In this document: positions 18,186 to 41,472 of the stretch, piece by piece
Layout of the letters: every line of letters begins with the position of its first letter
Position numbering within the stretch: position 1 is the first letter of the stretch
Source of the DNA: an uncultured bacterium
Lineage (GTDB): Bacteria > Bacillota > Clostridia > Christensenellales > UBA1242
Direction: 5' to 3'
Length of the DNA: 64,000 nt
Assembly (NCBI GenBank): GCA_949474265.1
Contig: CASXBC010000002.1
Span: 48,926-112,925, forward strand
The notes under the pieces: generated by a model
The model's input: the letters and a program-made list of their open reading frames with translations, nothing else
The model's database searches: none
Told to the model about the DNA's origin: nothing
Made by a program: the position numbers and the translations under genes

Positions 18186-18219
18186 TTATCGACAGAAATT
18201 TCACTGCCGATAATTTTTT
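18186..18219 (+). terminator. Terminator after the suf operon
   Basis: TTATCGACAG-N8-CTGCCGATAA (one mismatch) followed by TTTTTTA. Confidence 0.7.
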
Positions 18220-18233
18220 ATTGACACAAAAAC

Positions 18234-18262
18234 TTTACATTTTTTCTTTAAAATCATATACT
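18234..18262 (+). promoter_or_regulatory. SigA-type promoter of groESL (TTTACA-17-TATACT)
   Basis: Hexamers and 17-nt spacer read directly. No CIRCE (TTAGCACTC-N9-GAGTGCTAA) between 18158 and 18291. Confidence 0.5.
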
Positions 18263-18291
18263 TAAAGGGAAAGAAAAGGAGAACGAAAATT

Positions 18292-18579
18292 ATGAACATA
18301 AAACCTTTGTTTGACAGAGTTGTTTTGCTTCCAAAAGAGGCAGACAAAGAGACAAAAAGTGGAATCATTTTGCCATCTGCAAGTGCAGAAAAATCTCAGG
18401 TTGCTACAGTTGTTGCTGTTGGTATGGGAGGAAATTTGGATGGAAAAGAAATCAAGATGGAGGTTTCTGTAGGGCAAGAAGTCTTGTACGCAAAGTATAG
18501 CGGAACAGAATTTTCTCTTGATGGAAAGAAATATATAGTTATTAAGCAGTCTGATATTTTGGCTGTTTTGGAAAAGTAG
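18292..18579 (+). CDS. groES: Co-chaperonin GroES
   Basis: 95 aa. MNIKPLFDRVVL...GIILP...VLYAKYSGTE. Confidence 0.95.
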   Translation: MNIKPLFDRVVLLPKEADKETKSGIILPSASAEKSQVATVVAVGMGGNLDGKEIKMEVSVGQEVLYAKYSGTEFSLDGKKYIVIKQSDILAVLEK

Positions 18580-28301: not shown

Positions 28302-28322
28302 TGGTGGCTCGCCCGGGATTCG
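28302..28322. repeat. attL: 21-bp copy of the tRNA-Lys 3' end (TGGTGGCTCGCCCGGGATTCG)
   Basis: Identical 21-mer at 41397-41417, where it forms the 3' end of an intact tRNA-Lys. Confidence 0.85.
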
Positions 28323-28468
28323 CTTTTGAGCAGGATGCGAAAATGAGCACGCACGCTTAAAGAGTTCGCTCACAGCCGGGACAAGGCTCCGGGTTCATCT
28401 TGCCAAAATGGCAAGAGGCAAATAAAATTTGCCAAATCCCGAACAAATATGAATAAAAAAGAACGCTA

Positions 28469-29974
28469 TTAGCGTTCTAAAGTTATGGTGGAGCATTGTG
28501 TTTTGTGTAAGAACTCGTTAACAGCTTGCTCTCTATGTTCCTTTGCCTGTTTAAAGGTAAACTTTTTATTTCTTTCAAACAAGTCAAAGTAAATGTTTAT
28601 GTAGTCATCAAATACATAAATGCTGTTTACAAAAGTATTTATGATGGTCTCTTTAAACTTTTCTGTCTTTGGCTGGTCAATGAAAACTTGCAAATATTCA
28701 ACAATGTCTTGCTTTGAGTGATGTATGCTTAAGGCTATTTTTATTTTTTTAACCTGCTCGCTGTAAGTTGCTTGTTGCTCAGAAAGGTCATCTGCTTGCT
28801 TGTTAAGACGTGAAATAATATTGTCGTTTGTGCTTTTCATTATTTGCTGAGTTATTTTGTCAAACTTCTTCTCAATCTCTTCAAGTTGCTTTTCAAGAGA
28901 TACAAGTTCAGAATTGTTTATTTCATTTTTATAAGACTCTAAAATTCCATCTGCAATTGTGTTGATGTTGTCTTTTTGCAAAACCATATCAAAAATAAAA
29001 TTGAAAACATCTTCTTCAAGTTGTTGCTTGTTTTCATTTGACTTGTTGCAGGTATGTTTCTTATATCTCTCTTGACATGAATAGTAAGAGTGAGTTTTGC
29101 CTGTGTGGCTTGTTCCTGAAGTGCCAACCATGCTTGCTCCACAATGACCACAATACAGCTTGCCAGAAAGTAAAAACTTCTCCTTTGCTTTGTTTGAAAA
29201 TCTTTTGTTCTTTTTTAACATATCTTGTACCTTTTCAAATGTTACTTTATCAATTATCGCTGGATAGTAGTCGTTGTTCTCTACAAAAGAGTTTTTATAA
29301 AGACCAATATATTTTTGATTTGATAAATTGTATTGAAGACTATGAAGAGTAAATTTTTGCCCCTTATTTGTCCGATAGCCCATTTCATTGAGTTGTTTTA
29401 CAATTTCATTCATGCTTGTGCCTTTAGCATATTCACTAAAGAAAAATCTTACTGCAGGAGCCTGTTCTTCGTTGATTTTGATTTTCTTGTCAACTACCTT
29501 ATAGCCATATAAAATATTGCCACCTGTAAAATTGCCCTTTAATATATTCTCTCTCATTCCTCTTGTGACTTTTTGGCTCAAGTCTTTTGAATACATCTCA
29601 GCAAACATCTCAAGCAAGCCTTCCATCAAGACACCTTCTGGGGTGTTGCTTATCACTTCAGTTGCTGAAATCACTCTCACACCGTTTTGCTGAAGCTTGT
29701 GTTTGTATATTGCGTTGTCATACTTACTTCTGCTAAATCTATCCAGCTTGTAGACCAAAACATATTCAAATTGCTTTTTAGCACTATCAGCAATCATTCT
29801 TTGAAACTCTGGGCGGTCGGCATTTGTGCCTGTCATGGCACGGTCAATGTATTCATGAATGATTTTATATCCTTTTCTTTCGGCATATTCACGACACACA
29901 CGCAGTTGACCTTCAATGCTTTGTTCTGTTTGTGCTGATGAAGAATACCTGGCATAAATAACAATATTTGTCAT
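28469..29974 (-). CDS. Large serine recombinase (integrase of island 2)
   Basis: 501 aa. MTNIVIYARYSSSAQTEQSIEGQ, canonical YKLDRFSRSKY, Cys-rich LYCGHCG...YYSC zinc-ribbon-like region. Confidence 0.92.
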   Translation of the reverse strand: MTNIVIYARYSSSAQTEQSIEGQLRVCREYAERKGYKIIHEYIDRAMTGTNADRPEFQRMIADSAKKQFEYVLVYKLDRFSRSKYDNAIYKHKLQQNGVRVISATEVISNTPEGVLMEGLLEMFAEMYSKDLSQKVTRGMRENILKGNFTGGNILYGYKVVDKKIKINEEQAPAVRFFFSEYAKGTSMNEIVKQLNEMGYRTNKGQKFTLHSLQYNLSNQKYIGLYKNSFVENNDYYPAIIDKVTFEKVQDMLKKNKRFSNKAKEKFLLSGKLYCGHCGASMVGTSGTSHTGKTHSYYSCQERYKKHTCNKSNENKQQLEEDVFNFIFDMVLQKDNINTIADGILESYKNEINNSELVSLEKQLEEIEKKFDKITQQIMKSTNDNIISRLNKQADDLSEQQATYSEQVKKIKIALSIHHSKQDIVEYLQVFIDQPKTEKFKETIINTFVNSIYVFDDYINIYFDLFERNKKFTFKQAKEHREQAVNEFLHKTQCSTITLER

Positions 29975-29977
29975 ATT

Positions 29978-30610
29978 TCATCCCTTGTTGATGTTATAAG
30001 CGGTTTGTATTGTGACATTTACATGAATAGGTGAAGTATCTGAATAATAATCAGAGTTTATCATAAAATCGTATTCAGTTTTACAGTTGCTTTTTGTATA
30101 AAAGCGAAGCGTGTTATCAACTTCTTTAGTATAACAAGTAAATGTTTTCGAATAAGAGTTTCTAGAAAGTTTACCATCTCGCCATTCTTTAGTTACAAAA
30201 GAAATATATAATTTAACTTTTCCAACATTTGTATCGATTAAGTGGTCATTTTCATTTTTCTGTGTGTCTTTGTATGTAGATGTTAGAGTGTTCCCTTCTG
30301 TTGTGTTTTTAGCAATTACATACTCAAAGAATTTATGAGAGTCGTTTGTGAGATGAATTACATAAGCAGAAAAGTAAAAAGGTTTATAATTTGCATGACT
30401 TATATCTTTATCAACAGAAATTGATGTGCTATATATCTTGTTTAATTGAAGATTTTGTTTTTGCTTATTTGTATGATACATTATTGTAAATGACATAAAA
30501 GTCAAAAACAATACAGCAAAAATTAAAGCAAAAAGGTATTTTAATTTATACTTTTTGAGAACTGCTTTTAAGTTTTCAAATCGAGATGTATTTTTATTTT
30601 CTTCTTCCAT
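29978..30610 (-). CDS. Membrane-anchored hypothetical protein (moron or exclusion-type position)
   Basis: 210 aa. Single TM YLFALIFAVLFLTFMSFTIMY. Stop lies 3 nt before the integrase ATG. Confidence 0.65.
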   Translation of the reverse strand: MEEENKNTSRFENLKAVLKKYKLKYLFALIFAVLFLTFMSFTIMYHTNKQKQNLQLNKIYSTSISVDKDISHANYKPFYFSAYVIHLTNDSHKFFEYVIAKNTTEGNTLTSTYKDTQKNENDHLIDTNVGKVKLYISFVTKEWRDGKLSRNSYSKTFTCYTKEVDNTLRFYTKSNCKTEYDFMINSDYYSDTSPIHVNVTIQTAYNINKG

Positions 30611-30642
30611 TATTTATTTCTCCTTTGAGTTAATAATTTTTA

Positions 30643-31254
30643 TTAGTGTTTTTTGTTTCTTTGAATGAATTTTTTAAGCTGTTTCAAAAGTTTTTGCTCA
30701 AGTGGGTTTGTGTAAAACTGATTTCTGTCTTTTATTTCGTTGTAGCGCTTCATGCGAAATATTGCTGCATCGATACTGACATCACAAAGCAAAGCGAGTT
30801 CTTCTGCTGTTTCGATGTTCAGCTCTTTGATAAGTAACATTGGCATAAGCACTCTTGCTGAAAACATGTTCGCTTCTTTCTCAAGTTTTGTGCCTTTGTA
30901 TGTTTTGTGCAGCACAATGTGTCCAATTTCATGACATATAGTAAATCGATTACGCCAGCGGTCATTGTTTTGGTTATAACAGATGACATACGACCCTTCC
31001 ATTATCTCAGTGAAACCATCGGGGTATTGTTCTATCAGTTTTTCTTGCTTTATGCCATGCACTTGGCTATATTTGTTGTAACTCCATATTTGCCAATTAT
31101 TGTTTTTGGCAATCTTGCGAAGGTCTAAAGGATAACTTTTGACCTTGTTTTTTATTAAAAACTCCCACGCATTGTTTCTGACAGCATAGTAGTTGACATC
31201 GTATGTGGGCGGGTTGTGATTTGGTTTTTCAATAATGACATTTTCTTTTTCCAT
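30643..31254 (-). CDS. ImmA/IrrE-family metallopeptidase
   Basis: 203 aa. HEXXH motif in FTICHEIGHIVLH. Adjacent to the XRE repressor. Confidence 0.85.
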   Translation of the reverse strand: MEKENVIIEKPNHNPPTYDVNYYAVRNNAWEFLIKNKVKSYPLDLRKIAKNNNWQIWSYNKYSQVHGIKQEKLIEQYPDGFTEIMEGSYVICYNQNNDRWRNRFTICHEIGHIVLHKTYKGTKLEKEANMFSARVLMPMLLIKELNIETAEELALLCDVSIDAAIFRMKRYNEIKDRNQFYTNPLEQKLLKQLKKFIQRNKKH

Positions 31255-31301
31255 GAAAATATTATGTCATAGATTGTGAAAGAATATTTAAATATTGAAA
31301 A

Positions 31302-31637
31302 TTAAAACTTGTCAACATCTGGAGAGTCTTTCATATTTTCAATTAGGCTTTTCAAAAGTTTGATTTGCTCATCTGACATATGATATTCTTCTCTGCCTGT
31401 TCCACGACCAAACACAACGATTGTGTTTGTTTTTGGTGGGTCATAAGTGTTTGTTTTGCCAAGTAAATAATCAATCGACACATTAAAGAAATTTGCCAAT
31501 GTGGAAAGCATCTTAATATCTGGAATTGCCTTGTCTTGTTCCCATTTGCTTATTGTTGACCTATCTACATTTAAGATTTTTGAAAACTCATCTTGAGTTA
31601 GATTTTTGTTTTTTCTTAGTTGTTTGTAAATATTCAT
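31302..31637 (-). CDS. XRE-family HTH repressor
   Basis: 111 aa from MNIYKQLRKNKNLTQDEFSKILNVDRSTISKWEQDK. The track ORF extends further upstream into the promoter region. Confidence 0.85.
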   Translation of the reverse strand: MNIYKQLRKNKNLTQDEFSKILNVDRSTISKWEQDKAIPDIKMLSTLANFFNVSIDYLLGKTNTYDPPKTNTIVVFGRGTGREEYHMSDEQIKLLKSLIENMKDSPDVDKF

Positions 31638-31670
31638 AATACCAACCTTTAAACAAATTATAGGAATTAA

Positions 31671-31761
31671 ATTCACATTTTTCAATATTTTTTTAAAAAA
31701 ATGGTAAAAAGGGCTTGACATTCACATTTTTAAAGTTTAGAATGTGAATATAAATCACATT
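31671..31761. promoter_or_regulatory. Divergent switch region with four ATTCACATT-type operator copies
   Basis: ATTCACATT at 31671-31679 and 31720-31728. Inverted AATGTGAAT at 31741-31749. AATCACATT at 31753-31761. Confidence 0.6.
31715..31743 (+). promoter_or_regulatory. Rightward early promoter TTGACA-17-TAGAAT
   Basis: Hexamers read directly. Operator copies overlap the spacer and the -10. Confidence 0.6.
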
Positions 31762-31773
31762 TGGGGGTAAATT

Positions 31774-31998
31774 ATGAAACTTAAAGAACTTTTGAAGGTG
31801 TTAGACTTAGAAACTCTTTTCAAAGTGAGAGTTGATGGTGAAATTGGTTGTAAAACAAGCACATTATATCCGCCGACAATTCAATGTATGGAATTAAAGA
31901 ACTACATGGACAATGAAGTTGAGTCGGTTATGTGGACAGAACGCCATGGAATTGTGGTGCTTATTAGCAATGAAAAATCACCACAAGTGGGAGATTAG
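31774..31998 (+). CDS. Hypothetical early protein
   Basis: 74 aa. RBS GGGGG upstream. First gene after the rightward promoter. Confidence 0.55.
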   Translation: MKLKELLKVLDLETLFKVRVDGEIGCKTSTLYPPTIQCMELKNYMDNEVESVMWTERHGIVVLISNEKSPQVGD

Positions 31999-32000
31999 CC

Positions 32001-32189
32001 ATGAAAGTTTTAGTAGGATATGTGATTTCAAGAAAGACAGGGCAAGAGATGCCGATATATGAAGATTTTACAGAAGAAGACGCAAAACGCATTGAAGAAA
32101 GTCAAAACAATGCTCTTGCAGATATTTTGAAAGACTGCATCAAGCCACAGCTTGTGCAAAAGAAAATTGAAAGCGGAGGTGTGATATGA
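32001..32189 (+). CDS. Hypothetical early protein
   Basis: 62 aa; tightly packed with its neighbours. Confidence 0.5.
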   Translation: MKVLVGYVISRKTGQEMPIYEDFTEEDAKRIEESQNNALADILKDCIKPQLVQKKIESGGVI

Positions 32190-32296
32190 GTTTAAAAGGC
32201 TACAAGCAATTTTGCAAAGAAGAAGGGTTGAAAGAGTGCCGTTGGGAGAGTTTGCAAAGTTACAAGCATAAATGTGGAAAAGTCGAAGGGGTGTAA
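32186..32296 (+). CDS. Possible 36-aa ORF (below the ORF-track cutoff)
   Basis: Its ATG overlaps the preceding TGA (ATGA). RBS GGAGG. MSLKGYKQFCKEEGLKECRWESLQSYKHKCGKVEGV. Confidence 0.3.
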   Translation: MSLKGYKQFCKEEGLKECRWESLQSYKHKCGKVEGV

Positions 32297-32297
32297 G

Positions 32298-32537
32298 ATG
32301 GTAGATAAAAGATTTTTTATAGAGAACAGCTTTGTGTTTGTGTTGAAGTGGAAACAACCAAATTCACTTATGTTGCCAAATAGACCAAAGACAGAAGATT
32401 GTCACTTGATAGTCTGCAGTGAGAAAAAGGCAAGAGAAACTTATGCAGATTTCAAAAGAGATGAACAAAAGAAAAAGAAAGTCTGTACCGGACTTTATAA
32501 AGAGTTTGCAGATGGCTCAGAAGAACGCATTGCGTAG
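32298..32537 (+). CDS. Hypothetical early protein
   Basis: About 79 aa from MVDKRFFIENSF. RBS GAAGGGG. Confidence 0.5.
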   Translation: MVDKRFFIENSFVFVLKWKQPNSLMLPNRPKTEDCHLIVCSEKKARETYADFKRDEQKKKKVCTGLYKEFADGSEERIA

Positions 32538-32546
32538 GAGGGTTAT

Positions 32547-33236
32547 ATGTCATTTTGGAGTATGCCATTGCCAAACTACATAAAAAATTCCAAGTCAATT
32601 TCAAGTGATGAAAAGCTGTTGTTTCAAAGAATTATGGAAAACAGAAATCAACTTGGTTGGTGTGGTTTGACAAATAAAATTTTTGCAGGTTGTTTTAGTG
32701 TGTCAGAAAGGACAATATCTGCGTGGGTTTCAAATCTTGAAAGACAAGGTTTTATCAACATCACAAACAGCCGACACAACAAAGAAAGACACATCTATTG
32801 CAACATTCCAAAGAGAGCTCCAGCAATGCCAGATTACAATGTCAATATGTCGATTGATGATTATCTCAAAATTTTCACTCTTGCATTTCCAAGCAACGAA
32901 AATGACATCCAAGAAAATATCACAGTTGAACAGGCAAACTTCTTGCGTTCGTTCAGAACCCATTTTCCAAACAAGAAGATTGATTGCCAAATCACTTGCA
33001 AGAAGATAGACAACTACACAGAACTTATGCTTGCTTGCAAGAGAAGTCGATTTGTTTCAGAAAATGATAATCTTGGTCTTGCATGGGTATTGGCAAATAG
33101 TGAAGAAATTATTGCTGGGAGATGGAAAACTTTTGATGATTCTTCAGTTATTAAATCAAACTTTTCACAGGGTAGAAATTACACCAGAGAAGAAATGAAT
33201 GCTTGTTTACAAAGTATTGAGGATGTGGAGATATGA
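32547..33236 (+). CDS. Winged-helix DNA-binding protein (replication-organiser-like?)
   Basis: 229 aa. N-terminal region GLTNKIFAGCFSVSERTISAWVSNLERQGFI looks like a wHTH. No HUH or helicase motifs seen. Confidence 0.45.
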   Translation: MSFWSMPLPNYIKNSKSISSDEKLLFQRIMENRNQLGWCGLTNKIFAGCFSVSERTISAWVSNLERQGFINITNSRHNKERHIYCNIPKRAPAMPDYNVNMSIDDYLKIFTLAFPSNENDIQENITVEQANFLRSFRTHFPNKKIDCQITCKKIDNYTELMLACKRSRFVSENDNLGLAWVLANSEEIIAGRWKTFDDSSVIKSNFSQGRNYTREEMNACLQSIEDVEI

Positions 33237-33808
33237 AAGCACTTGTATTATTTGAGACTTCTGGTGCGGTGTCAGTTCCATTCCGTGAAGCTGGCTGGGA
33301 TGTGCTGACAATAGACATCTTGCCTCACAAAGTTGACAATGAACATCACATACAAGCTGACATCCGGGACATAGACAAACTTGGACTTGACTTTTCACAA
33401 TTTGACTTTCTTATGGCATTTCCTCCATGTACTTATTTTTCAAAAGCTGGACTTCATTATTTGAGAACGCAAGAAGGAAGAAAAGAGAAACAGATTGCTG
33501 ACTTAGAAATGGTAAAAAAATTATGGGAAATACCAATAAAACGAAAGTGTTTTGAAAATCCTGCTGGTAGTGCTTTAAACAAACTTTGGAAGAAACACTC
33601 TTGTCGTATTGATTATTGTCAATTTGCGGACTTTAAAAAATTGACTGATTTGTGGTTAGAAAATTTACCACCCCTTCTACCAGAATAAATCAATTTGAAA
33701 CGTTACGGAGAATTTATAAGCAGAATGAGATATGGTTCTTATAGAAGATGCTTAACACCTATAGAAGTGGTATATGCAATGGTTAAGCAGTGGGGGGGGG
33801 AGTTTTAA
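33233..33808 (+). pseudogene. Small phage-type DNA (cytosine-5) methyltransferase-like gene interrupted by an in-frame TAA at 33686
   Basis: Motif I-like LFETSG, motif IV FPPCTYFS, FENP, LWLENLPPLLPE, then TAA. A further 39 in-frame sense codons (..RRCLTPIEVVYAMVKQWGGEF) contain a G9 run. Confidence 0.55.
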
Positions 33809-33826
33809 GGATAGGGAGACAATTCA

Positions 33827-34042
33827 ATGAAAGAAAAACGACCGATGAACAAATGGCTCAAGAGAGTGATTATTTTGCTTGTCATTTTAGTTTTGTTAAT
33901 TTTCTTAGGACCTGTAGTTTTTTACTTGGGCAGTTATGTGCTTGAAGGGCTTAAATACTTGCTAGGATGGATAATTTGGCTTTTAAGATTTTTAGCTAAA
34001 CTTTTAGACTTTTTTCACTTTACAGGAATATTTGGAGGATAA
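33827..34042 (+). CDS. 71-aa double-TM protein
   Basis: Two hydrophobic helices (VIILLVILVLLIFLGPVVFYLG; LLGWIIWLLRFLAKLL). RBS GGGAG. Confidence 0.6.
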   Translation: MKEKRPMNKWLKRVIILLVILVLLIFLGPVVFYLGSYVLEGLKYLLGWIIWLLRFLAKLLDFFHFTGIFGG

Positions 34043-34045
34043 AAT

Positions 34046-35257
34046 ATGGCAAAAGAAAATTCAATTTTAAACAAAATAATTACATTGATTGCAGGTCTTT
34101 ACATCCCCATTGCCATTGTGGTACTTGGGTTTAATTGTTGGTTTATATATTACAAACTTGAATTAGAAGCAAACGTTTCTACACTTAAAACATCATTTAT
34201 AAATGATGCCACTTATAGTGGAGATGAGCAAGTTTTCTTTATGGAAGCAAATGTTTTTGATAATGTAGTTGAATGGAAATGGACTTATTATGTTGACACC
34301 TCGTTACCAAATCAAAAAGAGGACGGCTCTTTTGAAAGAAAATATATGTATTCCACAGGTGTACAATTTTACTCTCAAAATAAGGATGAGTGTTTTGTTA
34401 AAAAGGATAACTCAAATTTTTTCAAAGGTACAACACGACATTGGTACGAAACAAAGGATTGCACGTTTTATAGTACACCAGAGGGGATGGACTATGGTTT
34501 TGTTTCTCCAGATGAAGCAGAACTGAGAGACCAAAATAAGTGGGTTTGGGATATTGGTGGACAGCTTTGTCAGTTGAGAACGAAAGGTGATATACAATAT
34601 AACAAAATTTTATGGAAGAAACATACTTTGAGTTATGATGCAAATTACCTCATGTATACAAACATGGACTCTTTACTTTCATTTAAAGAGGGTGTGACAA
34701 TTACATACTTTGATATGTCAAAATTCTTTGATGTTGCATTGTATAACAAAGAGACAGGCAAGTTTGGTGAAGAAAATGTTGATGTAGATAAAAATATACT
34801 TGATGCACTGACTTTTGTTGCGGTTAAGGTAACAAAACATGATAGAGATATGGTCTCTTCAAGACAATCACTTTTTAAATTATATAAAGGTAATACAAAT
34901 TGGGAAGCAGATGGCTCAGATTCTTCACTTCAGTATTGGCAAGATAAAACAGTTTATACTGCTACAGCTAATGACTTTCAATTTATGTCTGCTGAAACAA
35001 AATATAATATTGAGTTAAAAAGCTCTTGCTTATATTATTTATCTAATTTTTCAGACGTTGTTGTTAGAATTGACATAAATCTCAACGACTTTGGCAGTGT
35101 TGCGGTGATTGGTTTTTCGGACAAGCCATTTGGAGAGTTGAATGTCTTAAGTGTAAATATTACAGCCACAGAACAAAGAGACTTCAGTATTCCGCAAAAC
35201 AAATGGACGATTACTACAACAAACATAAATCTCATTGAAAGGGGGACTGCAGTATGA
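34046..35257 (+). CDS. 403-aa membrane-anchored protein, unknown
   Basis: N-terminal TM IITLIAGLYIPIAIVVLGF. Large Trp/Tyr-rich ectodomain. 3-nt gap to the upstream gene. Confidence 0.65.
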   Translation: MAKENSILNKIITLIAGLYIPIAIVVLGFNCWFIYYKLELEANVSTLKTSFINDATYSGDEQVFFMEANVFDNVVEWKWTYYVDTSLPNQKEDGSFERKYMYSTGVQFYSQNKDECFVKKDNSNFFKGTTRHWYETKDCTFYSTPEGMDYGFVSPDEAELRDQNKWVWDIGGQLCQLRTKGDIQYNKILWKKHTLSYDANYLMYTNMDSLLSFKEGVTITYFDMSKFFDVALYNKETGKFGEENVDVDKNILDALTFVAVKVTKHDRDMVSSRQSLFKLYKGNTNWEADGSDSSLQYWQDKTVYTATANDFQFMSAETKYNIELKSSCLYYLSNFSDVVVRIDINLNDFGSVAVIGFSDKPFGELNVLSVNITATEQRDFSIPQNKWTITTTNINLIERGTAV

Positions 35258-35895
35258 AGAATGTGCTTTTAAAAATCAATTTTGATTTGTTTGGTGGTAT
35301 CAAAGAAACAATAATAACTTCTATAACAATACTTGCAGTTGTTGCCGGCATAATTGCGATTATCAAAGCAAAACATTTAAGACCTCTTGTGTACACAGTG
35401 TTTGCAGTTGCATGGTTGTTTACAGGTGTATTTTCAATTTCAAAGTATGTGTCATATAAAAACACAATCAGTTATGTGATTGGTACACCTGAGATATTTG
35501 AGCCTTATAAAGATTTCGACTTCTTGGAATACAATTTAAAAAATGTTGTGTGGGAGCCTAAAGAGGGTAGTTATATTTTTGAAGAGATATATCAAACATC
35601 AGCAAAATTTGAGGGAGAAGAAAAAAAATATTCAGTTATTGTAAACAATACACCGGCAACTTATTGCAATTCAGCAAATGGGCGACTTATTGCTAGATAT
35701 GAGAAGATTTTTAAAGACATTGATGGTGAGATTGATGCGGACATTACATTTAATATTCAAATAGTTTTTAAATCTTCGAGTATTACACTGAAAGTAACGT
35801 GTAATGCAACCGTAGATAATATTGGCATTGTAAGAGAGTATACAAATTTGAATGGACTACACATCAGAATAATTAAAACTGTATATTCGGCTTAA
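35254..35895 (+). CDS. 213-aa double-TM protein, unknown
   Basis: TMs ITSITILAVVAGIIAII and LVYTVFAVAWLFTGVFSI. 4-nt overlap with the upstream gene. Confidence 0.65.
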   Translation: MKNVLLKINFDLFGGIKETIITSITILAVVAGIIAIIKAKHLRPLVYTVFAVAWLFTGVFSISKYVSYKNTISYVIGTPEIFEPYKDFDFLEYNLKNVVWEPKEGSYIFEEIYQTSAKFEGEEKKYSVIVNNTPATYCNSANGRLIARYEKIFKDIDGEIDADITFNIQIVFKSSSITLKVTCNATVDNIGIVREYTNLNGLHIRIIKTVYSA

Positions 35896-35906
35896 AAGGA
35901 GAAGTT

Positions 35907-37526
35907 ATGAAAATAAAAAAAATAGTTACATGGATTATATTTGTAATAATTGTAGGTGTTGTTATTTTTGGAGTAACTTGGATTGGAATAAATTGGAAAA
36001 AAATCACATCCAAAAGTGAACTCTATACGCATGATGAGTATCTTCAATATGGTGAAGATAGATATCAAGCAGGACTTCAACAAGGCGAGGTATATAGAGT
36101 GCAACTTCTTGAATGTCAAAGAAAGCTTGCAGAGAACGAAAGTGAAACTGCTAAACTTGTTATTCAAGTGAATGATTTAATAAACAAAGGAAATGCTGAT
36201 GCAGAGATAATTGGCTCTTTAACTCTTAGAGTTGAGGAACTTCAGACAAATCTAGATGCTTCTCTTGAAAGTTTAGAAAATTTAAAACAAGAAAATGAAG
36301 AGTTATTGTCATCAAATGAAGCATTATCAAAAACAGTTTCATCTCTCGAAGTACAAGTGCAAAACTTGCAAAACGAGATTACAAGGTTTAATTGTTTGCT
36401 TGAAGCCTATGAGCAGATTGCTAATGAAACTGAAATGCTTGACTTTTATGATGATGATAATCCAAGTACTTTAGTTACAACAAAAGTTGTTAAGCATGGA
36501 CAAACTCTGAATGTATTGGATGTTCCAAATATGGAATCTACAGACAAGAGGGTTTTCAAGGGTTGGGCAAAAACAAAAGATGGTGAGGTTATTGATTTCT
36601 CAACTTATAGTGTTTTTGAGAGAGAAGTCTTTTATGCAGTATATACCTATTATTATGATGTTACCTTTTCAATGCCACATTACAGACCAAATGGACTATT
36701 GGATGAAGAGACAAGTACTCAAAGGGTAGAGAAAGGCTCGGTAGTTAAGTCGCCTTCGATTGAATTTGTTGGCTATATCTTTAATGGCTGGGAGTATGTT
36801 TTTAATGAACAAACCGGTACTAGATATGATGTCGATTTATCTAATTTTAAAATTGTTAGAGATATTACTTTCATAGCAAAACTTCAGCAGAAAACATTTG
36901 AGGAACTTACATGGTCTGAAATTTCTGGAATGTCTATTAGTGGAGGTTTGTCAAGTTGGCTTTCTGTTGGAGATGAAAGAGATATTGAGTTTGCGAATGG
37001 AGAAGTACAAACATTGGTTGTGTTAGGCATTAGCCATGACACAATAAAACGTGGAGGTACAGCTTTGTATTCAGATTCATGTGTAACTATTGGCTTAAAA
37101 AATTTAATGAATGGATTAAGTCAAGTAAATGATACAAAAACAAATGTTGGAGGCTATTCAAATTCAGCTATACGTGAATATTTGAACACTACAATATATG
37201 GGCAACTTCCAGAGGACTTGAGGTCAGTTATTCAACTGACAATAGGAAAGTCTGATACAGAGGATAAACTCTTTTTGTTAAGTGCTACTGAAGTGAGCGG
37301 ACAATCAAATTCTAATTATGCTGACGAAGGAAAGCAATATGATTATTTCAAAACACATGATTGGTCAAAACGTTTGTCAAATGGAGAGGGTGATGCACTT
37401 GAATATTGGTTGCGTACAACATATCTTGGAAATCAGTCTAATTTTATGTTGGTTGGTAAAGCAAACTTTATAACAACAACTGATGCAGATATGCTTTATG
37501 GTACTTGCTTTGCATTCTGTATTTAG
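35907..37526 (+). CDS. 539-aa membrane-anchored coiled-coil protein with B-repeat-like and DUF6273-like C-terminal domains (candidate adhesin or receptor-binding protein)
   Basis: TM IVTWIIFVIIVGVVIFGVTWIGI. Coiled coil about residues 60-170. FKGWAKTKDGEVIDF and FNGWEY repeats. C-terminal IREYLN..LFLLSATEV..YWLRTTY. Confidence 0.65.
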   Translation: MKIKKIVTWIIFVIIVGVVIFGVTWIGINWKKITSKSELYTHDEYLQYGEDRYQAGLQQGEVYRVQLLECQRKLAENESETAKLVIQVNDLINKGNADAEIIGSLTLRVEELQTNLDASLESLENLKQENEELLSSNEALSKTVSSLEVQVQNLQNEITRFNCLLEAYEQIANETEMLDFYDDDNPSTLVTTKVVKHGQTLNVLDVPNMESTDKRVFKGWAKTKDGEVIDFSTYSVFEREVFYAVYTYYYDVTFSMPHYRPNGLLDEETSTQRVEKGSVVKSPSIEFVGYIFNGWEYVFNEQTGTRYDVDLSNFKIVRDITFIAKLQQKTFEELTWSEISGMSISGGLSSWLSVGDERDIEFANGEVQTLVVLGISHDTIKRGGTALYSDSCVTIGLKNLMNGLSQVNDTKTNVGGYSNSAIREYLNTTIYGQLPEDLRSVIQLTIGKSDTEDKLFLLSATEVSGQSNSNYADEGKQYDYFKTHDWSKRLSNGEGDALEYWLRTTYLGNQSNFMLVGKANFITTTDADMLYGTCFAFCI

Positions 37527-37649
37527 AGACTTGTATATTGACTTACATAGTATCAAGAGATGGTGGGGAGATACTACTCACCACCAAAGGCGAGCAACAA
37601 GCTGGTACGACTCCTACTCGCCTTAATTTGAACAAAAGGAGGAGAAGAG

Positions 37650-37877
37650 ATGTCAAAAAGTAAGGCACAAAAGAGAAAGTTTGGTTTTGGCTCGTTTTGT
37701 GTTGGAGTTGCTTGTGTTGTTGCTCTTGGTGGTGTTGCGTTTGGAATTTACAAACTAGTTAAACACTTTGATAAGAAAGATACATCACAATCAGAAGAAA
37801 ATAAAGAAAATCAAGACCAATCTATTCAAGCAACCGCAGAATATAAAATAGCAGAAAAGCTAGTTGCTGGAATTTAA
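37650..37877 (+). CDS. 75-aa single-TM protein
   Basis: Basic N-terminus, TM FGSFCVGVACVVALGGVAFGIY, acidic C-terminus. RBS AAGGAGGAG. Confidence 0.6.
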   Translation: MSKSKAQKRKFGFGSFCVGVACVVALGGVAFGIYKLVKHFDKKDTSQSEENKENQDQSIQATAEYKIAEKLVAGI

Positions 37878-37950
37878 AAAATCAACATAAGCCTTAAAAA
37901 ATTATTCATTAAAATACCTAAAAATAAAACCAAGTTAAAAAGGAGTGTGT

Positions 37951-39177
37951 ATGCGAAAGAAAAAGAGAAAAGGAAAAGAAATTATAGGAGAGCCTATAAA
38001 GGAATATCCTTTGTCGCTTTTAGAAAGGATTGCACATAATCGACCATATTTAATTTGGTTTTTTTGGTCAGTAGTAACTGCAATGATTGTTGCTCCGACT
38101 ATTGTTAAAAACTATGAGAATTGGTGGTATTATCTGTTGATTGCACCTGTAATGTTTTTCTTTATCAAAGGGTGTATAAATTCAGTTAGACAAATTCACT
38201 ATTCAATTAGATGTTTTGTTAAAATATACGAGTATTGTAGAAATTCGTCGTCGTTTAGAATATTCTCAGGACCTCCCGGAACAGGAAAGTCATTTTGTGG
38301 AATGTTTTTAAGTTATATGAAAGCTTTGTATAATTGGCAAAAATTAAAGTTTAAATATTGGTGTATATGTAAGAAACTTAAAGATAAAGATTATAATCCA
38401 ACAGTTGATGAACTTGAAGTTATAGAGGCATATAAGTTTTATATTGAGAATGGCGGAGTTCCATGTTGGGGGTCAAATACGCCAGCTTATTCAAAAAAAT
38501 TTAAACGTTATTCTTATGATATAACATCAAGAATTGTGAGACAAGAAGAACGAGCACCATATATGCTTTCTGGGTTTTATGATGAATGGGGAACAGAAGT
38601 TTCTCTTGAACTTAAAGATGCTAGGAAATCAAATGCTTGTGGTGCTGCAAATATATCTGATTTCTGTAAATTCCCAAGACATTTTGGAGAATTAGAGTTT
38701 GTTGGTGGAGAGCAAGACCCAAACAATCTTTATAAAGATGCAAGGCGTGTTGTAGGGGAGATTAGGGTATATAACGGAAAAAAAGAATTGTTAAAACCAA
38801 GGTTTTTGATGTGGTTATATGAAAAGTTTGAAAAGCGTTTTACTAATAGAATGAGATATAGTGATGCAAAGTTGTTTTCTGGATTTATGGTTTTGTTAAA
38901 TAAATATATAAATGCTTGTGGGTATATGAAATTTACTTATAAAGTAATGGGAAATACTGAGACGGGTGCAAATGTTTCATTGAGTGAAACGGGGGAAAAA
39001 GAGTTTGTTTATATTCCTTGTGCTAATGATATTGTTTATCGAACTAGAGCATTTAGAGAAGCGTATCTTTGTAAGAATGATAAAGTTCGTTTGAAACCTT
39101 GGACAAGTTTGTATATGACGGAAGAGCGTGCTAGAAGTATGCTCAAAAGTGAAAATTTAGTAAAAAAAGAAGATTAA
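37951..39177 (+). CDS. Membrane-anchored P-loop NTPase
   Basis: Two N-terminal TMs (LIWFFWSVVTAMIVAPTIV; YYLLIAPVMFFFI). Walker A FSGPPGTGKS. Walker B-like SGFYDEWGT. RBS AAGGAG before the ATG at 37951. Confidence 0.7.
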   Translation: MRKKKRKGKEIIGEPIKEYPLSLLERIAHNRPYLIWFFWSVVTAMIVAPTIVKNYENWWYYLLIAPVMFFFIKGCINSVRQIHYSIRCFVKIYEYCRNSSSFRIFSGPPGTGKSFCGMFLSYMKALYNWQKLKFKYWCICKKLKDKDYNPTVDELEVIEAYKFYIENGGVPCWGSNTPAYSKKFKRYSYDITSRIVRQEERAPYMLSGFYDEWGTEVSLELKDARKSNACGAANISDFCKFPRHFGELEFVGGEQDPNNLYKDARRVVGEIRVYNGKKELLKPRFLMWLYEKFEKRFTNRMRYSDAKLFSGFMVLLNKYINACGYMKFTYKVMGNTETGANVSLSETGEKEFVYIPCANDIVYRTRAFREAYLCKNDKVRLKPWTSLYMTEERARSMLKSENLVKKED

Positions 39178-39196
39178 ATGCAACACATACCAATTT

Positions 39197-39237
39197 ACAT
39201 TCACATACACACACGGTGCGTGAGTGTGGGTGAATGT
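39197..39237. repeat. Strong hairpin ACATTCACATACACACAC / GAGTGTGGGTGAATGT
   Basis: Arms read directly. Both arms contain the switch-region motif ACATTCAC. Confidence 0.7.
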
Positions 39238-39428
39238 TTAAATAGATATAGTGTTGCTAAAATTGCTTATTTTACTAAATTTTCACATAGAACAAACAAC
39301 AAGCACCTCTGCCAATCAAATATAAAATCAAATACCAATTAAAAAATACTTTTATATAAAAAAGATTAACTAAATGTGAAAATTTAGATAAAGAAACAAA
39401 ATTGAAAATTTATAAAAAAATACTACTT

Positions 39429-39473
39429 GCCCGAACTTGTTCGGGCTTAAGATTTGCATTTGTGCAAATGCAA
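39429..39473. repeat. Two adjacent perfect hairpins (GCCCGAA-N4-TTCGGGC; TTGCATTT-N4-AAATGCAA)
   Basis: Read directly; lie just upstream of the RBS of the 39491 gene. Confidence 0.65.
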
Positions 39474-39490
39474 TTAAAGGGAGAGAGAAA

Positions 39491-39985
39491 ATGAGTGCAA
39501 AAGCAATTATTGTAATATCAATAGTAATAACAATTTGGGTTTGTATGATGGGATGTATTATATGGCTAAACCTAGCAGAAAAAGATGAAAAAACAAACAA
39601 AATTAAATTAAGAAAGTTCAAGAACTATTACATAGGCAGATTAGAGGCTTTGGAAGAGTATTGCAGTGTATCGAAAGAGATAAAAAAAAGATGGGGGTAT
39701 GTTTATATACACCTTCTAGGTTGTAAACAAAATAATCAACGACAAACAAAAAAGCAATGGAAAATAAGAAATTCAGAAGCATACAAGCTTGGATGGGAAG
39801 ACTTTGCAAACTTAAAAATGAGGAATATACCTACAGTTTGTCGAATGTGTGGACAGCCAAAACATGACTTCTATTGTTTAGGTAATTGTAGAAGTTGCAG
39901 AAGCTATAATGGCTCACAAGATTTGTTGTGGGAAGAAAAATCGAAAGAAGAGGTGAAAAAATTATGCAAATACATACATCATTAG
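39491..39985 (+). CDS. Membrane-anchored protein with C-terminal Cys-rich (zinc-ribbon-like) region
   Basis: About 164 aa from MSAKAIIVISIVITIWVCMMGCIIW. CRMCGQPKHDFYCLGNCRSCRSY. RBS AAAGGGAGAGAG. Confidence 0.6.
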   Translation: MSAKAIIVISIVITIWVCMMGCIIWLNLAEKDEKTNKIKLRKFKNYYIGRLEALEEYCSVSKEIKKRWGYVYIHLLGCKQNNQRQTKKQWKIRNSEAYKLGWEDFANLKMRNIPTVCRMCGQPKHDFYCLGNCRSCRSYNGSQDLLWEEKSKEEVKKLCKYIHH

Positions 39986-40222
39986 GAAAAAGAGAAGTGC
40001 CAGATTGTATGGCAAACGATTCCAAAAATATGTCTGACATTGAGCTTATTGAAACTCTACTTGAACAGAAAATAAGCGTTGGTCTGTCCTTATTGTATCA
40101 ATGTTAAAACATCAAGGGACAATCGTTTTAAGAGAGCAGATAACAAGAACTCTCGCAACAATGCTGATGCACATGGACTATTTAAACGGCGAAATTATAG
40201 ATGAAAGGAAGGTTATTGAAAT

Positions 40223-40705
40223 ATGTTGATTTTAGATGAAGATTGCGTAGTGAGAAGAGTTAAAGCGAAATCGCAAGTTATTAAACCTATATATGCTATG
40301 CTTGTCAGAACAGACCAAATTTTTGACAATAAGGAAGAGTATAGCAAGGCTTATATTTCAGATACTTGGACTGGCTTAAAATACGAGGAAATATATTTTG
40401 TTACAAACAAAGGGAAACTGACAAGGAGAATATCGAAAGCAAGACAATTTAAAAGTTTGTTTGGTTATATATGGTGGTGTTATTGGCATAGTCTAATGGA
40501 CATCCCAGCTCCACATAAGCTTATAAACATTGCTCCATACCTTGAAGCTTTAAAATACAAAAGAACAAAGTGGAGAGAATTTGAAGAATGGTTGTCATTT
40601 CAACCTTGGGAAAATGGTTGTGTTTCAAAAGACAAATTGCTGGCAAAAGTAAGAAAGTTAGATGAGACAATCGTTGTGCCTTACAATGAGTTTGAAGATA
40701 CATAA
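40223..40705 (+). CDS. Hypothetical protein
   Basis: 160 aa, Trp-rich, no recognised motif. RBS GAAAGGAAGG. Confidence 0.55.
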   Translation: MLILDEDCVVRRVKAKSQVIKPIYAMLVRTDQIFDNKEEYSKAYISDTWTGLKYEEIYFVTNKGKLTRRISKARQFKSLFGYIWWCYWHSLMDIPAPHKLINIAPYLEALKYKRTKWREFEEWLSFQPWENGCVSKDKLLAKVRKLDETIVVPYNEFEDT

Positions 40706-40716
40706 AAGGAGAAGAT

Positions 40717-40935
40717 ATGGTTGTAGAAAACACAAAGGAAATGATTGAAGAAATCATGGAATACTACGCACTTGATAGGCTCAGATTTGCCAAAAAATAC
40801 GGGCTACAAGCCTCTCAAGTAACAAGGTGGCTCAATGACGAGCAAGAGCCAAAAACAAAGACATATTTGCTTATTAAAGAGGAATACGACAAGATAAAGG
40901 GCAAAGTTCCACCACAAATGAAAATGATAATTTGA
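40717..40935 (+). CDS. Small HTH-like protein
   Basis: 72 aa. FAKKYGLQASQVTRWLNDEQEP resembles an HTH. RBS AAAGGAGAAG. Confidence 0.5.
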   Translation: MVVENTKEMIEEIMEYYALDRLRFAKKYGLQASQVTRWLNDEQEPKTKTYLLIKEEYDKIKGKVPPQMKMII

Positions 40936-41396
40936 TAAGTCGTCCAGAGTGAAAGCCTCTGTTTATATATGAACAGCTTGAATATGTAATTTATTATCGA
41001 GACACAAGGTGCCTTGCGTTTTTTATTGTCATAATTAACATAGAAATACATTTCAAACTACATGGAAAAAATTTACAATTAGTAAAGAAAAAGAAGCAAA
41101 AAGAAAATACTACTCTAAATTATAAACTTTTTAAAAATATTTTTTGAGAAAAAATATTTAATAATTATAATACGCGTGCGTAGATGCCAAATAATAGGTG
41201 TTATTATATATAATAATACAAGCTGTAGCACTACGAACAGTTTTTGTATCGAAACAAAGTAAGAAAGCGACCATGAAGGTCGCTGGCTTGTGAAAAAGAA
41301 AAAAGATAAGCATATTTACTTATCTTTTTATTATTACACCAAACGAGCTGTGCCAAAATATAAATAAATTGTTTTGAGTTCGTATAGTGGTTAATG

Positions 41397-41417
41397 TGGT
41401 GGCTCGCCCGGGATTCG
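41397..41417. repeat. attR: 21-bp direct repeat, part of the intact tRNA-Lys
   Basis: Identical to 28302-28322. Confidence 0.85.
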
Positions 41418-41472
41418 AACCCGGGACCCCTTGATTAAAAGTCAAGTGCTCTACCGGCTGAGCTAGCGAACC
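41397..41472 (-). tRNA. tRNA-Lys (anticodon UUU)
   Basis: Minus strand GGTTCGCTAGCTCAGCCGGTAGAGC..CTTTTAA loop..GGTTCGAATCC..GCGAGCCACCA. Cloverleaf folds by hand; CCA is encoded. Confidence 0.92.

Follow-up and report, generated by a model that had tools for sequence, protein, structure and literature searches.

What kind of mobile element has been integrated beside the tRNA-Lys(UUU) gene of an uncultured bacterium of the Clostridia (Christensenellales; UBA1242), and where does it begin and end? The locus lies in a 64,000-nucleotide stretch of contig CASXBC010000002.1 (assembly GCA_949474265.1, positions 48,926 to 112,925), hereafter referred to as the window, and an earlier note made from the letters alone had described it as a 13.1-kb element bounded by a perfect 21-bp direct repeat. 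The analysis presented here suggests, with a probability of roughly 0.55, that the element is the provirus of a temperate, non-lytic, non-tailed and membrane-assembling virus of inovirus- or plasmavirus-like type.

Recombination core and boundaries of the element

The 21-mer TGGTGGCTCGCCCGGGATTCG has exactly two copies in the window (28302-28322 and 41397-41417), and a search of the whole window with up to 3 mismatches, for which 100 shuffles served as control, revealed no other match in the window and none in the shuffles. The right copy represents the 3' end (with its CCA) of an intact tRNA-Lys(ttt) on the minus strand (41397-41472; Rfam, 71.4 bits), which is the final gene of a Gly-Arg-His-Gln-Gln-Lys cluster; the Rfam scan detected tRNAs and nothing else. 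The perfect repeat and the intact tRNA-Lys(UUU) described in the earlier note were therefore borne out by the two exact copies and the Rfam call, and the integration of a mobile element at the 3' end of this tRNA was also supported. Neither G+C content nor base composition distinguishes the element from its flanks.

The 21-bp repeat is very probably not the recombination site. The core of recombination is most likely the hexamer TGGTGG in the last codons of the large serine recombinase (LSR) gene (28486-28491), 164 bp inward of the 21-bp copy; the hexamer is identical to the end of tRNA-Lys (41397-41402) and reads CCACCA on the coding strand. Part of the evidence comes from related loci, denoted here by L numbers. 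In LSR-encoding relatives that target tRNA-Glu, the flanking repeat is only 9 bp (L006 and L007) or 14 bp (L002) long, one copy being located at the CCA end of the tRNA and the other within the last LSR codons. The LSR proteins of the excised forms were predicted in silico by joining the LSR 3' end, the core and the right end of the element, and those of L006 (516 aa) and L002 (520 aa) were found as exact sequences in a public collection. Another 516-aa LSR of the same 90%-identity cluster (P0193) is encoded on L043, a contig of 15,915 bp whose ends overlap exactly over 47 bp; it has 240x coverage, contains no host genes, and its attP reads ...GAGTTCTCATGCTTAACCGAAAA[GGTCACCAA]TAAAATAACCACGAGAACTC..., precisely at the predicted junction (L043 9133). 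It is demonstrated for this LSR clade that crossover occurs at the CACCA end of the tRNA, that attP lies within the integrase gene and that a circular form exists. The circular contig originates from ENA entry ERZ1643254 (NODE_1833); its coverage is high for a metagenome contig and could reflect active replication or particle production.

The window shows the same organization. Its reconstructed attP has exactly the form seen in L007, GAGTTC-N40-GAACTC in which CACCA stands at offset 20, and each of the three attP sites that were reconstructed has its best dyad centre immediately 5' of CACCA; when attP is built on the 21-bp repeat instead, the best dyad centre is found elsewhere, between TCCCGG and GCGAGC. 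Across the window junction the LSR frame stays open for 25 codons, encoding TLTTIRTQNNLFIFWHSSFGVIIKR followed by a stop codon. This tail aligns with that of L007 (NKITTRTLTIKFVFYKNIFGAIVKK, also ending in a stop) at equal length and free of gaps, with a score that was reached by none of 20,000 shuffles, and four conserved residues (Thr, Arg, Gly and Ile) were seen by eye to be specified by different synonymous codons. A terminator-like hairpin follows the extended LSR reading frame (41266-41284, minus strand). In the integrated form, the last five codons of the window LSR (ITLER) and its stop are host-encoded, whereas the integrated reading frames of L002 and L012 continue for about 40 codons into host DNA. 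Sequence comparison strongly supports a swap in which integration would exchange the conserved 25-residue C-terminal tail of the LSR for a few host-encoded codons. With the 6-bp core, the predicted attB of the window is ...GCGAGCCACCATAACTTTAGAACGC... / ...GGGCGAGCCACCATAACTTTAGAACGCTAATAGCG... and the predicted attP is ...CAATGCTCCACCACATTAACCAC... / ...CACAATGCTCCACCACATTAACCACTATACGAAC.... That a short attP/attB identity within an imperfect dyad holds for the window is inferred, not observed there, the junction having been verified on L043.

Because the window shares the core geometry of its relatives, with TGGTGG at both ends, there is a high probability that the unit moved by the LSR extends from 28486 to about 41402 (about 12.9 kb; 12,911 bp counting one core copy), leaving the 21-bp copy behind on excision. 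The right end of the formerly proposed 13.1-kb element at tRNA-Lys stands, whereas its left boundary gives way to a core that is likely at 28486-28491. The 21-bp repeat is not supported as the attP/attB identity, since four lines of evidence lead to the 6-bp core at the tRNA CACCA end, and therefore the suggestion that the identity is unusually long for this recombinase class also falls: a core of 6 bp is typical of serine integrases, with which the puzzle vanishes. The long att identity that had been flagged is an artefact of picking the longest repeat.

Native flank and the 21-nucleotide copy

The sequence to the left of the core (28302-28485), with the 21-bp copy included, reads as native host flank in comparison with related loci. 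A terminator-like hairpin (28460-28478) is located directly after the core, where a tRNA operon would be expected to end. The motif GAACCCG-N(2-9)-GTCCCGG occurs once in the window (28376-28396), and it lies 81-90 nt after the CCACCA of tRNA-Lys in the window, L022 and L013. In L022, a family element occupies tRNA-Leu and the host tRNA cluster is the same as that of the window; its tRNA-Lys is directly followed by a terminator, the GC-rich stretch and 21 nt that duplicate the 3' end of this same tRNA-Lys, the interval being free of any element (16139-16320). This layout is colinear with the window from 28485 down to 28302, the partial copy being located 161 bp past the tRNA-Lys of L022, and a second copy of the GC-rich stretch occurs at 16587-16659. 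In L013, the same terminator and GC-rich stretch follow a 45-bp tRNA-Lys repeat (15233-15345).

These comparisons bear directly on the original proposal that the element is 13.1 kb long, that the 21-bp repeat is its attP/attB identity and that the 165 bp between the repeat and the LSR gene belong to it. In its favour, the perfect repeat is non-random, encloses the whole gene set and restores the end of the tRNA, its perfection suggests a recent event, and the short version in L022 could be a deletion remnant of such an element. On the other hand, the LSR relatives cross over at a 9-14-bp core in the LSR 3' end, as the circular L043 and the exact excised-form proteins indicate, the window retains the attP dyad, its spacing and an in-frame conserved tail over the 6-bp core, an attP built on the 21-bp repeat displaces the dyad centre, and the terminator and GC-rich segment directly follow tRNA-Lys in L022 and the tRNA-Lys repeat in L013. 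The proposal appears quite improbable in this form.

How the 21-nt copy arose may be approached from the fact that the partial copies in the window and L022 are both perfect and have the same T-loop start, each matching its own tRNA-Lys, and that the two tRNA-Lys genes differ at 4 of the 21 positions of the copied stretch. In an old scar, drift should be expected. Possible explanations include recent independent events caused by another tRNA-Lys-targeting element that leaves a remnant of 165-190 bp, gene conversion, and a function of the copy itself, and the flank stretch could be a scar or a cis-mobilisable remnant. A consensus fold of the GC-rich flank was uninformative, and a tRNA-like fold of the GC-rich stretch together with the 21-nt copy was rejected by eye, the 5' strands of the acceptor and T stems being missing.

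A membrane-anchored ATPase probably related to pI and Zot

One informative gene had been overlooked in the earlier survey of the open reading frames (ORFs), which encodes a membrane-anchored pI/Zot-like ATPase. The protein has two N-terminal transmembrane (TM) helices (about residues 36-81) followed by a P-loop, with a Walker A motif GPPGTGKS (109-116), a Walker B motif DEWG and an EQD motif. A first AlphaFold model based on 15 sequences had a pLDDT (predicted local distance difference test) of 63 and no significant fold matches, and it was replaced by a model based on a 123-sequence alignment (pLDDT 94.5). The best match of the latter in the PDB was the genome-packaging NTPase B204 of STIV2 (E 2.3e-3), followed by the N-terminal domain of Neisseria Zot (2r2a; E 2.6e-3, target TM-score 0.50-0.54) and then by AAA+ proteins. 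Foldseek matches in BFVD included an unnamed viral protein (E 1.6e-9), for whose accession a literature search found nothing, Zot proteins of Inoviridae (E 3.7e-6 and weaker), ORF3 of Acholeplasma phage L2 (P42538; E 1.7e-4, probability 1.0), an acid-mine-drainage virus protein and A32-like packaging ATPases.

Profile comparisons gave a similar picture. Pfam Zot was the commonest family match among the relatives of the ATPase (11 of 92, best E 3e-5), and the family profile was aligned by hhalign with M13 pI over Walker B, EQD/VQD and a conserved Arg (probability 61%, E 8e-5), the controls pIII, pIV, B5 ORF6 and B5 ORF9 all having a probability below 1%. Against L2 ORF3, the hhalign probability was 15% (E 1.7e-3) and HMMER was not significant, and a sequence search of the PDB with the ATPase and its profile returned P-loop matches only. 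Because of the fold matches, the Pfam Zot matches in relatives and the alignment with M13 pI, the ATPase may be placed as a divergent member of the virion-morphogenesis branch that contains pI and Zot, with its topology reversed.

An element family in uncultured gut Clostridia

Among 5.8 billion clustered proteins, 15 relatives of the window ATPase were identified, all unnamed, and an exhaustive search with the ATPase profile yielded 265 cluster representatives. The contigs of the relatives come from metagenome-assembled genomes (MAGs) of uncultured Clostridia, a Catabacter MAG and gut-type metagenomes. These loci share a common plan: a leftward integrase and XRE repressor, with or without ImmA, are followed by small ORFs, a winged helix-turn-helix (wHTH) initiator, a 71-aa membrane protein, an N-terminally anchored protein of about 400 aa, further anchored proteins, a small TM protein, the ATPase and a few ORFs including a 72-aa helix-turn-helix (HTH) protein. 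The core genes are those for the replication initiator (Rep), the 71-aa protein, the 403-aa protein and the ATPase, together with integrase and repressor, and five or six membrane proteins are present. A protein of 73-97 aa with a basic N-terminus, a single Gly/Ala-rich TM helix and an acidic C-terminus is encoded just upstream of the ATPase in 8 of 11 loci (none is listed in L010, L011 and L013). Loci whose ATPases have as little as about 33% identity to that of the window keep the module of membrane proteins and ATPase, and the 12.6-kb contig of a distant ATPase relative (P0049, L031) has the same outline.

The integrases are exchangeable. An LSR is present in the window, L002, L006, L007, L012 and L023, and a tyrosine recombinase in L001, L008, L009, L013, L022 and L032, while the tRNA targets comprise Lys, Glu, Leu, Val, Gly and Ala. 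For example, L032, whose 403-aa protein is 71% identical to that of the window, has a tyrosine integrase and a 14,073-bp element with a 48-bp repeat at tRNA-Val, and L033 from another sample is a circular permutation of the L032 element with an attP junction; circles of 14.1 and 15.9 kb were found among the relatives. A 54-nt poly-C run in L033 (1-54), an assembly or sequencing artefact at a G9 tract, hides a 45-bp end overlap from simple circularity tests. An autonomous mobile element or virus would be expected to combine conserved cargo with exchangeable integrases, whereas a prophage in decay would not. The family is a previously uncharacterised, rare and coherent group of small (12-16 kb) temperate elements of uncultured gut Clostridia, and no description of it in Firmicutes was found in the literature. 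A tblastn search with the window ATPase against 50,697 phage records and 72,556 plasmids gave no match.

Several additional observations were made in these loci. The tRNA-Glu-targeting elements contain a tRNA-Asn(gtt) just upstream of the small TM protein and ATPase (9253-9325 in both L002 and L006; 9257-9329 in L007). In L035, the element with a tyrosine integrase is flanked by an imperfect repeat of about 112 bp (6345-6456 and 18206-18317, 86% identity), and directly upstream of it (3481-6164) a 450-aa protein and a 444-aa DUF6273 protein are encoded, which suggests a second element or a remnant in tandem.

Gene content of the window element

The features of the element and its junctions are summarized in Table 1. 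The leftward module of XRE repressor, ImmA, TM protein and LSR that the earlier note had recognised was confirmed by Pfam and PHROGs, and the HTH_3, Peptidase_M78 and Resolvase domains bear out its comparison with the immR-immA-int order of ICEBs1, with a large serine recombinase as the integrase and with the XRE repressor beside the M78 peptidase near the integrase. The LSR has the Pfam domains Resolvase, Recombinase and Zn_ribbon_recom and matches the integrase family phrog_95 (E 7e-119), its closest NCBIfam models being CcrB and XisF, both under the cut-off. By analogy, ImmA is predicted to cleave the XRE repressor. The 210-aa TM protein may serve in superinfection exclusion, and a Cro-like regulator or a recombination directionality factor may be encoded among the 74-, 62- and 87-aa ORFs.

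Table 1. Coordinates of the integrated element, its junctions and its genes in the window
Feature	Position	Strand	Remarks
21-bp perfect copy of tRNA-Lys 3' end	28302-28322		Outside the unit moved by the serine recombinase
Apparent native flank downstream of tRNA-Lys	28323-28485	-	Terminator hairpin and conserved GC-rich stretch
LSR, 501 aa in integrated form	28469-29974	-	PF00239 E 2e-32, PF07508 E 8e-19, PF13408 E 1e-12
Left core copy TGGTGG (most likely), in last LSR codons	28486-28491		Geometry proven in relatives
210-aa protein, one N-terminal TM	29978-30610	-	No homologue in related loci; accessory
ImmA-like Peptidase_M78 (anti-repressor protease)	30643-31254	-	PF06114 E 4e-13
XRE/ImmR-like HTH repressor	31302-31721	-	HTH_3 E 5e-18; divergent from rightward operon
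Three small early ORFs (74, 62, 87 aa)	31774-32537	+	62-aa ORF conserved in LSR relatives
wHTH replication initiator / replisome organiser	32547-33236	+	phrog_19658 E 2.5e-11, DnaD-like; 9/9 loci
151-aa C5 cytosine methyltransferase-like protein	33233-33688	+	Pfam, PHROGs, NCBIfam, PADLOC scans
71-aa membrane protein, two hydrophobic segments	33827-34042	+	Family core gene
403-aa protein, N-terminal TM anchor, no known domain	34046-35257	+	Family core gene, 9/9 loci
213-aa protein, two TM segments	35254-35895	+	Hydropathy scan, locus comparison
539-aa candidate adhesin/receptor-binding protein	35907-37526	+	N-terminal TM, coiled coil, Listeria-Bacteroides repeat, C-terminal DUF6273
75-aa protein: basic N-terminus, Gly/Ala-rich TM helix, acidic tail	37650-37877	+	Just upstream of ATPase
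Membrane-anchored P-loop ATPase, 410 aa	37945-39177	+	Family hallmark, pI/Zot-like
182-aa protein, one TM, Cys-rich C-terminus	39437-39985	+	Hydropathy scan
160-aa protein and 72-aa HTH protein	40223-40935	+	72-aa HTH kept near right end of most relatives
Element right end	41320-41396	-	P' arm of attP and 25 codons predicted to extend the LSR frame only in the excised circle
Intact tRNA-Lys(UUU)	41397-41472	-	Last 6 nt (41397-41402) = right core copy (most likely)

The replication initiator contains no HUH motif, and neither HUH nor Rep_trans matches were found among the window ORFs; a wHTH initiator of this kind suggests a putative double-stranded replicon. The match of the 151-aa protein to C5 cytosine methyltransferases is confined to their N-terminal third, and ORFs at the same position in relatives have weak or faint matches to Pfam DNA_methylase; the 151-aa protein may represent a distinct small family and not a truncated gene. 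TM segments were detected in 10 of 19 window ORFs by a simple hydropathy scan, and the 75-aa protein is a candidate major coat or membrane protein.

The C-terminal domain of the 539-aa protein is also found in Faecalibacterium and Roseburia phages, one of these copies bearing the annotation of a Hoc-like decoration protein, and this domain accounts for the sole PHROGs match of a structural category. The C-terminus differs among the counterparts in relatives, which carry LRR_5 or Gp53-like_C instead (L032 11868-13280; L035 11859-14374). Such swapping resembles that typical of host-recognition and phage receptor-binding proteins and might indicate a similar role. Three small 'Bacteriophage sp.' scaffolds that share DUF6273 (MT837512, MT838026 and MT839912) have no other family gene.

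In line with the earlier note, no genes of tailed phages or conjugation were recognised: searches with Pfam, PHROGs, NCBIfam and PADLOC profiles found no terminase, portal, capsid, tail, lysin, relaxase, VirB4 or VirD4 in the element. With regard to Caudoviricetes, Pfam and PHROGs detected neither terminase, portal, capsid and tail genes nor holin and endolysin among 20 ORFs. With regard to integrative and conjugative or mobilizable elements (ICEs and IMEs), no relaxase, coupling protein, VirB4 or FtsK-type match was obtained, for the large ORFs even at E up to 10, and with regard to satellites, Pfam and PHROGs revealed no small terminase, capsid-redirection or primase-helicase gene.

Nature of the element and alternative explanations

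The provirus reading is favoured by the viral matches of the ATPase, by the small single-TM protein that precedes it as in M13 and L2, by the adhesin domain of the 539-aa protein, which is common with phages of gut Clostridia, and by the lack of lysis, tail, capsid and conjugation genes. At the level of the family, we tentatively suggest, with somewhat less than even confidence, a new lineage of temperate, non-lytic, membrane-assembled double-stranded DNA (dsDNA) viruses of walled gut Clostridia, which would be neither classical inoviruses nor plasmaviruses but would have a morphogenesis ATPase in common with both. In this reading, the serine integrase clade of the family, with attP in its own gene, targets the universal CACCA end of tRNAs, and integration would rewrite the C-terminus of the enzyme.

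A possible mode of life can be outlined, in which integration, excision and the tail swap of the LSR are demonstrated or strongly supported by the locus comparison and the remaining steps come from homology and gene plan. The LSR would insert the circle at the 6-bp core CCACCA at the extreme 3' end of tRNA-Lys, leaving the tRNA intact, and the 21-bp repeat, as part of the native flank, would stay behind on excision. With attP in the LSR 3' end, the integrated gene would end with five host codons, whereas the circle would regain the 25-residue tail together with a terminator of its own. As long as the element is integrated, the XRE repressor (ImmR) would silence the rightward operon until ImmA relieves or inactivates it on induction, as in ICEBs1 and phi105. 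The wHTH initiator might then recruit the host replisome to the double-stranded circle, while the 71-, 403-, 213- and 539-aa proteins and the 75-aa protein would gather in the membrane. The ATPase, held by its N-terminal hairpin, would drive DNA into or through this membrane assembly, exit taking place by extrusion or budding with no lysis, and the 539-aa protein with its exchangeable C-terminal binding domain would attach the particles to new hosts.

Several points weigh against this interpretation. No virion, induction or packaged DNA has been shown for any family member. No rolling-circle Rep or ssDNA-binding protein was found in the element, which makes it unlike classical inoviruses, and no structural protein matches L2 when family profiles are compared with all L2 proteins. 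The host is walled, as the genes for an SLT lytic transglycosylase and Spo0A in the flank of the element indicate, which makes budding difficult. With respect to the ATPase, the window protein itself is below Pfam Zot detection, its fold matches in the PDB are weak (E about 2e-3), and the order of TM hairpin first and ATPase second is the reverse of that in pI. IMG/VR scans with the ATPase alignment and the 403-aa alignment gave no match, and this reading does not account for the perfect 21-bp copy. Moreover, the empty site and the circular junction, for which the earlier note had proposed a search, were not found for the exact window element in the public contigs and proteins searched, nor was an excised-form LSR. 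Within the same species, the contigs reached through exact identity to the ATPase, to the flanking NUDIX protein and to the flanking 208-aa protein all have the element in the same place; the predicted 521-aa excised-form LSR of the window was absent in an exact look-up, and IMG/VR scans for either candidate attP junction found no match.

Among the alternatives, contact transfer in the manner of actinomycete integrative and conjugative elements (AICEs) would make the ATPase a dsDNA translocase and the membrane proteins a mating or spread apparatus (cf. TraB and Spd), with no virion involved. The AICE plan is matched in size, in tRNA integration, in the presence of a replication initiator and in having just one membrane ATPase, which is of the FtsK-HerA/pI kind; N-terminal TM helices followed by an ATPase are reminiscent of coupling proteins, and a surface adhesin would also suit mating. 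However, matches to FtsK_SpoIIIE, TraG/VirD4, VirB4 or relaxases were obtained at no threshold, the top matches of the ATPase are viral throughout, by sequence as well as by fold, the ATPase has no homologue in the 72,556 plasmids, and the 240x coverage of L043 with no host sequence suggests strong amplification or packaging. Transfer of the AICE type is known solely from mycelial actinomycetes. We regard this explanation as unlikely.

Similarly, the element might be a satellite or cryptic island that excises and replicates but depends on a helper phage for its packaging or has ceased to transfer, its membrane proteins serving the host or excluding phages. The size and the layout of integrase, repressor and rep genes resemble those of phage-inducible chromosomal islands, no capsid gene is recognisable, and every sampled genome of the species has the element at the same site. 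This explanation also appears doubtful in view of the fact that no terS, capsid-remodelling or primase-helicase genes were found and that circular forms occur. In addition, the maintenance of the membrane-protein and ATPase module down to about 33% ATPase identity, with a similar plan around P0049 (L031), implies selection on a self-contained function, an argument of conservation that has likewise been made for Dehalococcoides IME1.

That the element descends from an ordinary tailed prophage through loss of the structural genes is hardly credible, even though the integrase-ImmA-XRE lysogeny module and replisome organiser are common in Firmicute siphophages. The same gene set of about 13-16 kb is found in many genomes and also as complete circles, in each case without any gene of tailed phages, and a decayed prophage would not stay conserved to this extent.

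Comparison with known systems

In the way it works, the element comes closest to inoviruses, plasmaviruses and Dehalococcoides IME1, and it falls outside the first two groups by their membership tests. Thousands of cryptic inoviruses have been detected by Roux et al. (2019; PMC6813254) with the same criteria as those used here. The likeness to Tubulavirales (M13/Ff and the Gram-positive phage B5) and to these cryptic inoviruses lies in a putative pI/Zot-like ATPase as the sole recognisable hallmark, several short TM proteins, a large adsorption-type and a small hydrophobic protein just upstream of the ATPase, the lack of lysis genes, tRNA integration by serine or tyrosine recombinases, and a size within the cryptic-inovirus range. 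Short (30-90 aa) single-TM proteins are represented by the 75-aa protein with one TM segment and the 71-aa protein with one or two, and gene VI of M13, encoding a small hydrophobic protein, precedes gene I just as the 75-aa gene precedes the ATPase of the element. In contrast, pI has a cytoplasmic N-terminal ATPase followed by its TM segment, whereas the ATPase of the element starts with a TM hairpin; rolling-circle Rep and ssDNA-binding functions are missing, the wHTH initiator suggesting a double-stranded replicon; the small TM protein, with its basic N-terminus and acidic C-terminus, is a mirror image of the inovirus major coat protein; and the coat and adsorption candidates have no sequence similarity to those of inoviruses.

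Phage L2 of the Plasmaviridae (L13696) is similar in genome size (about 12 kb) and G+C content (about 32%), in tRNA integration, in its temperate, non-lytic nature and in its many membrane proteins. The window element, with 12.9 kb at tRNA-Lys and circular relatives, corresponds to the plasmavirus pattern of a temperate, tRNA-integrated, circular dsDNA genome of about 12 kb. L2 ORF3, a fold match of the ATPase, has a hydrophobic N-terminal region right before its P-loop and follows the small two-TM ORF2, and the wHTH protein ORF11 is a weak match to the Rep of the element (E 4.5e-4). The relationship of the ATPases exists at the fold level only, and homologues of ORF1, 12, 13 and 14 were not found: in BLASTP and hhalign comparisons of family profiles with all L2 proteins, Rep-ORF11 was the sole match with E<0.01, and HMMER and hhalign family profiles recovered only the ATPase and a generic wHTH. 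Furthermore, the membrane proteins of L2 have C-terminal anchors behind signal peptides, whereas those of the element have N-terminal anchors, and L2 infects a wall-less mollicute, whereas the host here is a walled, Clostridium-type bacterium. Because plasmaviruses share the integrase alone with other viruses according to the ICTV profile (PMC12662186), the fold links of L2 ORF3 to this family and to Zot are of some interest.

Dehalococcoides IME1, which a report of September 2026 presented as a new lineage of viruses confined to Chloroflexota, was identified by a pI-like ATPase and small TM proteins, and the proposal rests on metavirome and electron microscopy (EM) data (bioRxiv 10.64898/2026.09.15.751708). 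It is likewise an integrated element once called an IME or satellite, has no tailed-phage hallmarks, occurs in integrated and circular forms, has a pI-like ATPase gene after which small TM proteins, a repressor and an integrase are encoded, and was proposed to be a double-stranded budding or filamentous virus. It differs in its size (21-28 kb), its tyrosine recombinase, its archaeal-type primase-helicase and its occurrence in Chloroflexota only. The resemblance to the present family is one of gene plan only.

The regulatory and integration modules have parallels of their own. As in ICEBs1 and phi105, the XRE repressor stands beside the M78 protease and the integrase at one end, divergent from the rest; the differences are a serine instead of a tyrosine integrase, an extra TM protein between integrase and ImmA, and the absence of conjugation genes. 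With large serine integrases such as those of phiC31, Bxb1, A118 and TP901-1, and with CcrAB of SCCmec, the LSR shares three domains, a short core and an imperfect dyad of about 50 bp with the crossover in its centre, whereas its clade is distinguished by the tRNA CACCA target (Lys, or Glu in relatives) and by an attP located in its own last codons. An attP inside the integrase gene has its nearest parallel in the tyrosine integrase gene of the SSV1 type, which integration splits.

Implications

If particles are made, a non-tailed virus group would join the almost exclusively tailed phages known from gut Clostridia, and the isolated Plasmaviridae and the filamentous phages would be linked by a common membrane ATPase. 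If the interpretation is true, this group has been overlooked by current virus-detection pipelines, neither hallmark protein having been found in IMG/VR, and egress of the plasmavirus or inovirus type would be extended to Gram-positive anaerobes. The LSR clade has natural attB sites at tRNA CACCA ends, with target switching between Lys and Glu and one attP verified by a circular contig. Its att sites are now testable, which is of practical value; enzymes of this kind are sought as tools for genome engineering. With regard to the calling of att sites, the direct repeat that is longest among those flanking an island need not be the site of recombination. What remains after this correction, a rare, tail-less, virus-like mobile family and a tRNA-CACCA LSR clade, is more interesting than an ordinary prophage.

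Just past the tRNA cluster, the segment 42161-43650 of the window has a G+C content of about 25%, compared with about 32-35% elsewhere, and contains, besides an HTH/MqsA-like gene of the minus strand, two unknown ORFs of 208 and 187 aa; this segment may represent a further small island.

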